From positions 1 to 64,000 of IMG/VR virus record IMGVR_UViG_3300025154_000068: a DNA stretch of 64,000 nt, one strand, 5' to 3'. The DNA is from a virus. How positions within the stretch are numbered: position 1 is the stretch's first letter; each line of letters opens with the position of its first letter. Positions 2,970 to 58,382 of this stretch are shown here, piece by piece. The notes under the pieces were generated by a model. It was not told the DNA's origin and searched no databases. It saw only the letters and a program-made list of their open reading frames with translations. A program made the translations under genes and the position numbers.

Positions 2970-3140
2970 CGCCGCCGGGGAAAGCCCGGGCCGATCTGTC
3001 GGTAGGTGTTTTGAAACAACAGATACCCGCGTGGTGAACGCGGGCCCGCACGGAAGCGAAAACTGTAACAATGATTCAAAGCCATTGGGTTACGACTCAT
3101 CTACGGGGAAATCTCTCGCGCTTCAGAGCCGTGCGGGATA
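2970..3140 (+). ncRNA. Candidate structured ncRNA (multi-stem)
   Basis: Stems ATCTGT/ACAGAT, CCCGCGT/ACGCGGG, and CCCGCACGG(3045)/CCGTGCGGG(3129) enclosing GAAGCG/CGCTTC and GTAAC/GTTAC. Confidence 0.45.
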
Positions 3141-55837: not shown

Positions 55838-57970
55838 TTACCGTCTGCTTCCGCCTCGCGCTGACCTGCTCGATGGTCGGCCCCGCCGGAGTCCGTCGTA
55901 GTCCTGGAGCTTCTTGTTCAGGTCGAGGGCAGTGATGCCCCACACGAGAGCGTCGACCCTGTCTGGCGATGTCTCATCGTTCGCTGGGTCCCATCCGCAC
56001 TGCTGGTCCTCGAGCTTCGGCAGCGTTCCCACGTGGTGGACTCTTCCCTTCTCGTAAAGGGTCGAGATCGGGTCTGCCCGGGTTGCCTTGCCCCGCGACG
56101 CGTGAACGGCCTTGAACGGCACACCCTGGCGCTCGGCTTGGACGTTGCGCTCGACAAGGTCTCCACCGTTGTTGACCTCGCCGATGATGTAGTCCGCTTC
56201 CCAGCGGTCGAAGGCCTCGAGAGCTCGCGCTGCCCATTGCGCTGGCGAGAAGACCCCGGAGAGGTCATCGAGAACGTAGGCGTGCCCGTCCTCGCCCAGG
56301 CCGACGACGATGATGCCGGTCTCGTTGCTCTTCGGGTTGGTCGATACCGCCGGGTCGATGGCGACGACCACCCGCCGCATGGGCGGGAGCGCGGGCGAGT
56401 ACGACCCATCGTCATTGACCCTGAGTCGAAGGTCATCAATCCGAGTGCGCTGCCAGAGCGCGTTCGGGTTGTCCTCGAGAATCTCGGCATCGATTTCCTG
56501 CCTGCCGAGCCTCGTCCCCTCGTACTCGGTGAGGATGGAGGCGAAGAACGGCTTAGCGAGGTTCGACCGATTCTCGTAGGTCGAGCCCTTCGTAAGGGCG
56601 ACATCCGCGCCTGCACGCTTGACGAGCTTCTTGATCGTCGCGATCGGCCTGGGCGTCGTCGTGACGATGCCTTGCGGATTCGTTCCGAGCCGGAACCCGA
56701 ACTGCAGCTGCGTCCACGCTTCCTGGAAGCGCCAGGCCGCAACTTCGTCCGCCCAAAACGTGTCGCAGTTGTGAACGAGAATCCCGTTGGCGAAGTACTC
56801 CGGCAGGCCCTCAACCGTGAGGTTGAACACCCGTCGAACGCCAACGTGCTCCCAGGTTGACGCAACGCTGACTGCAGTACCGTCCGCGCCTTGACACGAA
56901 CTCTCGCCCGCAGTGCTCGCACTTCCGGGTGCTCCTTCTGGCCTCGTCCGCGCGCTTCTGTTGGCACGCAGGGCACGCCGATGTGAAGCCGCCCCGCTTC
57001 CTGGGGAATGGCTTGCCGCAGTCCGAACAATCGATGTCGAACACCTCTCGTGACTCGACGTGCCTGTCGTAGTGCGTTCTGGGTGGCACGCACTCGAGGT
57101 TCTCGATCGCGTTGTTCGCCCGGTTGCCGTCCTTGTGATGGATGTGCCAACCAGGCGGGATCGGCCCGAGTTCCTGCTCCCAGATGACCCGGTGTTGGAT
57201 GTAGTGGCGACCGTTCGCGTAGCCGATGACGTATCCGTTCGCTCCAACGCGCCAACGAATACCCTCAAGCCCTTCGTCAGCTTGCCGAGTGGTACCCATT
57301 GTTCGCAAGATAAGACCGGATGATCGGCTGTGCCAGTGAGAGAAGCCCCGTTTGAGAAGCTGACGACGCCTACCTCGGCATCGTTCGAACCCGTTGCTAC
57401 AACCGGTCGAAGACCATGTCTCGTTACGACCAAATCGCCAACGGCAATGGCCTCGATCGGTCTGGGCCCCGCCTCGGTCTCGACAAGCGTTCCAGCGACG
57501 AAGCACTGCGGACCGCGCAGTCGATCGGGTCGGTCGGCCGACAGGATGGTGGCAACAGCCCCGTTGGGCCATGTCAGCCGCCGCTTCGATGGCTCGTAGT
57601 GCGGCTTGAACCACGGAGGCGAGATCGTCAGAAGTCCCGACTCGCCCTCGAGCATGACGTCGCGCGCATCCGCGGACGTCGCTGCGATCAGGGTGATTCG
57701 CTTGGACTCACCTGATTCAACCTTGCCTCGGATCCACTCGGCGCCAGTGCGGGTTTTCCCGAACCCGCGGCCCGCGAGGATGACCCAGATGACCCACGCC
57801 CACACGGGCGGGAGCTGCTTGTCGCGAGCCCAGAGACCTTGCCAGTCATACAGAAGCGTCCGAGCCGCTTCGTCCGGCAGCGTCGCTATCGCTTGCCGTA
57901 CCTGGCTCGGACTCATCTGGCGGAGCAAGCTTCGCAATCGCTTCTGCGAGCTGGCTCCTTGCATCATCAA
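55838..57970 (-). CDS. terL: Terminase large subunit with intein
   Basis: LAGRGFGKTRTGAEW, RLRGPQ|CDTFWADE, TTTPRP, VAIDPA, SPDRVDALVW; exact start uncertain. Confidence 0.95.
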   Translation of the reverse strand: MMMQGASSQKRLRSLLRQMSPSQVRQAIATLPDEAARTLLYDWQGLWARDKQLPPVWAWVIWVILAGRGFGKTRTGAEWIRGKVESGESKRITLIAATSADARDVMLEGESGLLTISPPWFKPHYEPSKRRLTWPNGAVATILSADRPDRLRGPQCFVAGTLVETEAGPRPIEAIAVGDLVVTRHGLRPVVATGSNDAEVGVVSFSNGASLTGTADHPVLSCEQWVPLGKLTKGLRVFVGALERTDTSSATRTVATTSNTGSSGSRNSGRSRLVGTSITRTATGRTTRSRTSSACHPERTTTGTSSHERCSTSIVRTAASHSPGSGAASHRRALRANRSARTRPEGAPGSASTAGESSCQGADGTAVSVASTWEHVGVRRVFNLTVEGLPEYFANGILVHNCDTFWADEVAAWRFQEAWTQLQFGFRLGTNPQGIVTTTPRPIATIKKLVKRAGADVALTKGSTYENRSNLAKPFFASILTEYEGTRLGRQEIDAEILEDNPNALWQRTRIDDLRLRVNDDGSYSPALPPMRRVVVAIDPAVSTNPKSNETGIIVVGLGEDGHAYVLDDLSGVFSPAQWAARALEAFDRWEADYIIGEVNNGGDLVERNVQAERQGVPFKAVHASRGKATRADPISTLYEKGRVHHVGTLPKLEDQQCGWDPANDETSPDRVDALVWGITALDLNKKLQDYDGLRRGRPSSRSARGGSRR
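56768..57505 (-). mobile_element. Intein (246 aa) in TerL
   Basis: CFVAGTLV, GTADHPV, VFNLTV..EYFANGILVHN then Cys+1; inserted just before Walker B. Confidence 0.92.
56811..57299 (-). CDS. HNH endonuclease with Zn ribbons in an alternative frame inside the TerL intein
   Basis: YIQHRVIWEQELGPIPPGWHIHHKDGNRANNAIENLECV; CSDC, CPAC, CEHC, YCSQRC. Confidence 0.88.
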   Translation of the reverse strand: MGTTRQADEGLEGIRWRVGANGYVIGYANGRHYIQHRVIWEQELGPIPPGWHIHHKDGNRANNAIENLECVPPRTHYDRHVESREVFDIDCSDCGKPFPRKRGGFTSACPACQQKRADEARRSTRKCEHCGREFVSRRGRYCSQRCVNLGARWRSTGVQPHG

Positions 57971-58382
57971 TCTCGATTGCTCCGCCGTCTGGACCGCTCA
58001 CCTCGGAGCGGGATGGCGCATCCGTGCCGAGCAGTCGAGCTCGCCGCTCCTCGATCCGGAGGGCTGTGTCGATGGCCCTCGGGTCTCCACGCCTCACCTT
58101 GCCGCGCAGTGCCCAGAGCATTCCGTCGAGGCGGATGAGCATCAGGTCCCGGACGTCCTCTGCGGACTCCTCCGTCTGCTCCCGAAGCTCAGCGAACTGC
58201 TTCTGGACAAGCTTCCAGGCCGCTTGCTTGGAGATGCCGAGCGCCTTGCCGATCGCGGGATAACTCGCGCCAGTGCGCTTCAAGTCGAGTGCCTTGGCGG
58301 CTCGGTCGATCGTGCGCACCTTCCGCGGCGTGACCTTGGTCGTCTTCGCCTTGGCCTTCGCCGTCTTCTTCTGCATCGTCAA
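57846..58382 (-). CDS. terS: Terminase small subunit
   Basis: HTH (GASYPAIGKALGIS), ERRARLLGTDAP, EVSGPDGGAI; overlaps terL. Confidence 0.8.
   Translation of the reverse strand: MTMQKKTAKAKAKTTKVTPRKVRTIDRAAKALDLKRTGASYPAIGKALGISKQAAWKLVQKQFAELREQTEESAEDVRDLMLIRLDGMLWALRGKVRRGDPRAIDTALRIEERRARLLGTDAPSRSEVSGPDGGAIEIDDARSQLAEAIAKLAPPDESEPGTASDSDAAGRSGSDASV

Follow-up and report, generated by a model that had tools for sequence, protein, structure and literature searches.

A predicted I-HmuI-like HNH endonuclease gene nested out of frame in the intein of a phage large terminase gene

Results

The large terminase gene (terL) of the virus record IMGVR_UViG_3300025154_000068 most likely carries a mobile two-gene module in two reading frames of one DNA, consisting of a class-1 intein and a separate I-HmuI-like HNH nuclease. 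The stretch analyzed here (hereafter, the window) comprises positions 1 to 64,000 of this IMG/VR record and is a 64,000-nucleotide (nt) portion of its 83 kb. A preliminary description of the window, made from the letters alone, had proposed that an HNH endonuclease is hidden in a shifted frame of the terL intein. All elements of this double-coding layout were confirmed to be present at the coordinates given below, and the dual-coding module is real and selected, as judged from the substitution patterns and the relatives described in the following paragraphs.

The terL open reading frame (ORF; 55838–57970, on the minus strand as are all features of the module) encodes 710 amino acids (aa) including the intein and is continuous in the window. 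Its start codon is uncertain, with TTG at 57970 and two ATG codons next. Pfam analysis of the ORF gave Terminase_6N (1.4e-22) and Terminase_6C (2.9e-12). The 246-aa intein proposed earlier at 56768–57505 was borne out: the codon of Cys1 lies at 57505–57503, the C-terminal ...VHN closes at 56768, and the +1 Cys follows at 56767–56765. The class-1 intein residues are all present, namely C1, the block B motif T59-x-x-H62 (T59-A-D-H62), H245-N246, and the +1 Cys; of these, C1, H62, and N246 were invariant across 39 aligned family inteins. The Pfam Hint_2 match to the intein was above its cut-off (E 5.5e-10, 40.2 bits vs 28.4), and the match to Intein_splicing was sub-threshold (28.9 bits vs a cut-off of 35.8). 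The N-extein (57506–57970) ends in ...DRLRGPQ and includes the ATPase-domain Walker A region, and the C-extein (55838–56767) begins with the +1 Cys, followed by DTFWADE (Walker B) and then the nuclease domain. In an alignment to Brevundimonas phage Polewnik, whose TerL has no intein, the N-extein matched up to the junction and the extein continued gap-free over it.

Structure prediction with AlphaFold 2 (AF2) divided the intein into three parts. The N-terminal Hint lobe (intein residues 1–88; 57242–57505) and the C-terminal Hint lobe with blocks F and G (VFNLTVEG...YFANGILVHN; residues 208–246; 56768–56884) both had predicted local distance difference test (pLDDT) values of 95–98; the N-terminal lobe was modelled as folded, all in beta strands, and the C-terminal lobe was also matched family-wide by a C-terminal hidden Markov model (HMM). 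The part between them (residues 89–207; 56885–57241) is what the HNH gene encodes when read in the terL frame, a stop-free linker with a pLDDT of 40–55 and no secondary structure. Its S/T/R-rich filler, SSATRTVATTSNTGSSGSRNSGRS, reads in the terL frame as had been noted, and the terL frame has no stop throughout the HNH gene. According to the model, the Hint ends fold well and the filler between them is unstructured.

The HNH endonuclease ORF (56811–57299) encodes 162 aa plus a stop in the +2 (equivalent to −1) frame relative to terL. A scan with Pfam HNH_3, named in the preliminary description as a check on this frame, returned an E value of 4.7e-18 (65 bits against a gathering cut-off of 24.8). 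The catalytic core H54 H55 ... N63 ... N67 ... H76 ... H80 (57060–57140) corresponds to columns invariant in 43/43 family members. It is followed by two zinc-ribbon modules (56862–57029), C91xxC94 with C109xxC112 and C127xxC130 with C142xxxC146, so that the four CxxC-type pairs noted before consist of three CxxC and one CxxxC. In the 43-sequence alignment, the first four of these Cys residues were invariant and the last four were conserved in at least 90% of the members. The AF2 model of the nested ORF, obtained with the same alignment, had a mean pLDDT of 88.8. A Foldseek comparison with the Protein Data Bank (PDB) gave 1u3e (I-HmuI) as the top match (prob 1.0, E 2e-3, template modelling (TM) score 0.44), and 1u3e was also the best match in a profile search (E 0.0016). 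The zinc-finger entries listed below 1u3e in the Foldseek result were rejected as noise from the ribbons, which left 1u3e as the sole meaningful match. These results suggest that the nested ORF encodes an I-HmuI-like HNH_3 nuclease with zinc ribbons.

Both ends of the HNH ORF are shared with intein codons. The proposed ATG start (57297–57299), supported by the sequence and by a survey of start sites in the family, overlaps the codons CAA TGG (Gln-Trp). The TGA stop (56811–56813) is made by the codons GTT GAG (Val-Glu) of 'LTVEG', which places it in block F as previously described. An HNH stop 43 nt ahead of the intein end was also found in Tetrasphaera phage TJE1 and in roughly one-third of the listed family loci.

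Next to be considered is which frame is under selection. In nine family pairs (62–99% identity), mismatches in the HNH region at terL-frame positions 1, 2, and 3 numbered 94, 267, and 122, the peak being the third position of the HNH frame, whereas those in the Hint regions numbered 67, 55, and 155, with the peak at the third position of the terL frame. The same pattern was obtained between the window and its closest relative, locus L006 (HNH identity 65%): the HNH core had 26/70/41 mismatches at terL-frame positions 1/2/3, and the two flanks had 42/38/66 and 5/4/14. The indels between these two sequences were multiples of three, and the HNH translation was conserved whereas the terL-frame translation of the filler was not. 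Where the HNH tail runs over the folded C-lobe (window about 56880–56850), the nucleotides were nearly identical to those of L006, as expected from true double coding. Both frames are thus under selection, each in its own territory, the HNH frame in the middle of the intein and the terL frame in the flanks.

In a tblastn search, the nested protein matched inside the terL genes of three cultured phages (Tetrasphaera phage TJE1, Rhodobacteraceae phage LS06-2018-MD07, and Clostridium phage phiCDHM19). The terL intein of each keeps its own frame open and has the HNH at +2 to it. A scan of IMG/VR returned 80 related loci. When these loci were translated in three frames and scanned with HMMs for the two lobes and the HNH, built from four members, 65 showed the N-lobe, then the HNH at +2, then the C-lobe, with the intein frame open; six further loci had the same nesting with more divergent inteins. 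A survey of terL inteins for stop-free alternate-frame HNHs, as had been suggested with the preliminary description, therefore yielded 71 nested cases among the 80 loci, 70 of them at the same +2 offset, and no in-frame HNH. Furthermore, no longer protein with this HNH in frame was found in a set of 5.8 billion proteins, although this is weak evidence. The earlier view that the HNH gene is a separate one lying out of frame, with the host frame kept open so that splicing would remove the filler, agrees with these counts, with the unstructured filler, and with the purifying selection on the HNH frame.

Eight of the 80 loci carried free-standing genes of the HNH family. In one of them (L077, 1004–3019), an intein-less terL (1004–2407) is followed immediately by a free-standing HNH/zinc-ribbon member, whose ATG at 2408 adjoins the terL stop codon. 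The origin presumed in the preliminary description, in which a free-standing HNH gene entered a mini-intein, fits these free-standing relatives, including the one that abuts an intein-less terL. Among the 71 nested loci, L083 (1659–2591) was alone in having the HNH at +1 instead of +2 relative to the terL intein, which shows that the frame relation can change; still, no in-frame form was seen. Another locus, in Vibrio phage 1.245.O (L005, NC_055736; 2331–3449), had a member of this HNH family, again at +2, with a terL frame full of stops. The annotation of this phage lists the N-part of terL, the HNH, and a 'hedgehog/hint domain protein' in that order, and the locus is accordingly a derivative of the nested layout with a split intein (a 'fractured gene'), a form seen only in this phage.

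Several other arrangements were observed in the family. The open terL frame of L055 (60–3230) spans 1057 aa and has a second intein-like N-terminus at its beginning (CLRGDSLVITESG...), so this terL probably contains two inteins. In L042–L044, six codons follow ...VSN at the intein end near 3035, then come a stop and a new ORF (MCM...), suggesting that the C-extein may be a separate gene. As for the window itself, other contigs in the same groundwater runs matched the 32 bases of block G at 56766–56797 (YFANGILVHNC) with one mismatch and diverged on both sides. One of these contigs is 12.4 kb long and has approximately three times the depth. Another phage of this community probably carries a second, related intein.

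The module occupied at least four different terL sites across the family. The usual site is ahead of the Walker B Asp-Glu (LRGPQxxxxW|CDE), and two others are at nearby points of the C-terminal nuclease motif. The insertion in the window (RLRGPQ|CDTFWADE) is five codons upstream of the usual Walker B site and was shared only with L006 and L007. The intein-less TerL of phage Polewnik is uninterrupted at this point (SLRGPQ|FDGAWCDE), and the DNA similarity between its terL and that of the window ends exactly at the intein border. The sporadic distribution and the several insertion sites fit mobility.

From these features, we infer terL splicing, the activity and target of the HNH nuclease, and homing as follows. 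In the terL frame, a stop-free, unstructured, and freely evolving stretch of ~120 residues links the two Hint lobes; in the −1 frame, the 162-aa HNH_3 nuclease runs from its own proposed ATG at 57299 to the TGA within the block F codons. Ribosomes that read terL through the linker would produce a precursor from which the intein removes itself together with the linker to give active terminase, and other ribosomes would initiate internally at the HNH ATG to give free nuclease. This nuclease may nick or cut intein-less terL alleles in a co-infection, and repair would then copy the entire intein-plus-HNH module into the cut allele, that is, homing. The layout is expected to persist because a move of the HNH into the terL frame needs two matched indels, either of which alone kills terL.

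Some observations count against this interpretation. As the preliminary description had pointed out, the window ATG has no clear ribosome-binding site; a Shine-Dalgarno (SD) motif before it was not found. The HNH frame is open for ~400 nt upstream into the N-extein, with a GTG at 57614, the point to which the frame had been described as open, and it is stop-free beyond this point too. A consensus scan of 56700–58100 for a sigma-70-like promoter found none. In synonymous reshuffling of the HNH ORF of the window, which has 62–65% GC, the terL frame was stop-free approximately 20% of the time, so the open frame was not significant from the window alone (P about 0.2). Finally, the role of the HNH may not be purely selfish, since zinc-ribbon HNH enzymes that neighbor terminase genes can also contribute to DNA packaging (PMC3592412).

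Of the alternatives, an unlikely one that nevertheless survives best is that the nested HNH has a role other than, or in addition to, homing: it would be a terminase helper nuclease like the HNH proteins encoded beside terminase genes in HK97-type phages, kept within terL for co-inheritance. Zinc-ribbon HNH genes commonly adjoin terminase genes (PMC3592412), such a role was suggested for the Brucella phage case (PMC4422536), and the free-standing relative in L077 abuts a terL stop codon. On the other hand, the HNH gene always travels with an intein and is found at four or more terL sites, and close TerL homologues lack both, a sporadic pattern typical of selfish elements; in addition, the nearest solved relative, I-HmuI, is a homing nickase. 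If the HNH had been co-opted as a terminase helper, its production inside terL would tie the nuclease supply to packaging, and this role would explain one-frame dual coding fixed through deep divergence and over at least four terL sites.

The preliminary description had left internal initiation and frameshifting both possible as routes to the HNH protein. In the family, the start codon was ATG in 44 of the 48 distinct loci, and an SD-like motif (e.g., AAGGAGG, GGAGG) lay 4–15 nt upstream of the start in 29 of the 48. Many relatives have a stop in the HNH frame 6–60 nt before the start, and in several of them this distance is 6–30 nt. In L006, TTG and then GTG stand at the position homologous to the window ATG, and GGGAGG precedes the GTG by 6 nt. 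The combination of SD motif and ATG in most relatives, often with an HNH-frame stop just upstream, argues for independent internal initiation, which the sequences favor over frameshifting as the best-supported expression route for the family. Internal initiation in the window phage would follow by analogy with these relatives. A −1 ribosomal frameshift from the terL frame, which would produce a fusion of the N-extein, Hint-N, and HNH ending in block F, is accordingly given little probability, less than a helper role. The −1 offset of 70 of the 71 nested loci would suit it, as would the window HNH frame that is open into the N-extein behind an ATG lacking an SD motif, and the unrelated Endonuclease VII inteins of Gordonia phages have the same offset. 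However, an X XXY YYZ slippery heptamer was absent from the whole terL frame, the stops before the start in many relatives, L006 among them, leave little or no room to shift, and L083 and Brucella phage Tb have the +1 offset. Hence, of the two routes, internal initiation gained support, and frameshifting was left without a slippery site.

Two further observations concern the start. The sequence TATCTT was noticed by eye 7 nt upstream of the window ATG and makes it a candidate for a leaderless transcript, on which we did not rely; no RNA dataset was among the sequencing runs listed for the window sequence. In 48/48 family starts, the terL-frame codon overlapping the nested ATG encoded Trp or Cys. 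ATG followed by A makes a TGA stop in terL, which bars A from the first position of the second HNH codon.

Another alternative regards the nested ORF as a relic: an HNH once in frame would have been lost by a frameshift, and a second frameshift would have rescued splicing, leaving a decaying pseudogene in what is effectively a mini-intein. The window ATG without an SD motif agrees with this, and an open frame can persist by chance in high-GC DNA. The claim of selection on the open terL frame rests on the relatives, because the stop test with the window alone was not significant. The phiCDHM19 copy (31% GC, 224 codons) has no stop in the terL frame and 34 stops in the third frame, and none of 3000 synonymous reshuffles of this copy was stop-free. 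Moreover, substitutions peak at third positions of the HNH frame in the window and in the family, catalytic residues and zinc ligands are all intact, a high-confidence fold was predicted for the HNH protein, the indels keep to multiples of three, and the ancestor-like in-frame form was seen in 0/80 loci. Neutral decay of the HNH frame, which the preliminary description had named as a refutation, was looked for and is not what the homologues show, and we regard a relic as very improbable.

The weakest alternative, that the HNH is truly in frame and was displaced by a pair of compensating indel errors, one near 57260 and the other near 56850, has the sharp frame switches exactly at both domain borders in its favor, but it has next to no chance of being correct, as independently assembled Logan contigs from four runs of four studies (groundwater and soil) covered 56600–57700 and both frame borders without a gap or a differing letter, the same offset recurs in three cultured phages and at 70 further independent loci, and no long in-frame protein was found (weak evidence, as noted above). 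The search for such indels, the other refutation that had been proposed, thus found none. An intein-less joint across 57505/56768 was not seen in the four runs either; as these data are contigs only, this says nothing on its absence.

Discussion

An out-of-frame nuclease gene in an intein is already known in the literature, and the arrangement is evidently common in phages. The terL intein of Brucella phages Tb and Pr (Perisivirus; NC_019446 gp07/gp08) was reported to contain a nested HNH gene (Virol J 2015, PMC4422536), and the Tb terL record is annotated 'intein present' and has a nested HNH coding sequence. As in the window, a separately annotated zinc-finger HNH gene lies out of frame in the terL intein; this one has its own SD motif and start. 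The Brucella HNH differs in that the zinc fingers come first and the HNH motif is C-terminal, and the HMM of the window family matched it at 3e-5 in the core only. The offset in phage Tb is +1, in contrast to −1 in the window, and its insertion site (NRAD|C...HN|CVIIDDP) is unlike that of the window.

A 2025 preprint described terL inteins with a nested ORF of the Endonuclease VII type in a survey covering actinophages only. As in the window, the in-frame middle of these inteins is unstructured and has no stops, and a nuclease ORF lies between the splicing blocks in 'frame 3' (= −1); the same origin, a free-standing nuclease gene invading an intein, was proposed there. Their nuclease is, however, a classic Endonuclease_7 (CxxC...DHDH...CN), whereas that of the window is HNH_3 with zinc ribbons. 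We checked one case of the preprint, Gordonia phage Affeca, which showed the same offset and an Endonuclease_7-like nested ORF with no match to the HNH HMM of the window family; of the HMMs for the intein, only that of the N-lobe matched (2e-4) and that of the C-lobe did not, indicating a different lineage. The window therefore falls outside the cluster of the preprint and in a sister family to it. A further nested arrangement is found in the DNA polymerase P45 of APSE-1, whose intein has a nested ORF, P46, at +1 that RefSeq calls an HNH endonuclease. Homology of the window family to the nested nucleases of the Endonuclease VII, Brucella phage, and APSE-1 cases was tested and rejected; they are parallel cases.

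I-HmuI (PDB 1u3e), the homing nickase of a group I intron in Bacillus phage SPO1, resembles the nested ORF in that an N-terminal beta sheet precedes the HNH core. This match is modest (TM 0.44, 18% identity), and I-HmuI is intron-encoded with a helix-turn-helix tail, whereas the window HNH has two zinc ribbons and lies inside an intein. In fractured genes, a free-standing endonuclease gene is located between the halves of a split intein (Dassa et al. 2009, PMC2677866). The window shares with them a separate nuclease gene between the N and C halves of an intein, and Vibrio phage 1.245.O carries the present HNH family in that manner. Unlike in fractured genes, no stop interrupts the terL frame of the window across the nuclease gene, and the intein is therefore one contiguous unit predicted to splice in cis. 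The ShiLan domain, a hidden out-of-frame HNH in a phage methylase (PMC11855218), is likewise an HNH ORF in another frame of a stop-free host frame without a clear ribosome-binding site, and raises the same question of translation; there, however, no intein is involved and the filler remains in the host protein.

To the published cases, the present comparison adds that the I-HmuI-like HNH/zinc-ribbon version is a large family that extends over different hosts, from Clostridium phages of 31% GC to environmental phages of 66% GC. Further additions are that the nuclease is nearly always in the −1 frame and never in frame, that several terL sites are used, and that a split-intein derivative exists. 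Such inteins get labelled as decaying or mini-inteins because gene callers miss the nested gene. The family adds evidence that inteins gain mobility nucleases through invasion by free-standing nuclease genes, and it provides a natural case of two proteins encoded in two frames of one DNA, in which splicing would discard the by-product of the overlap.

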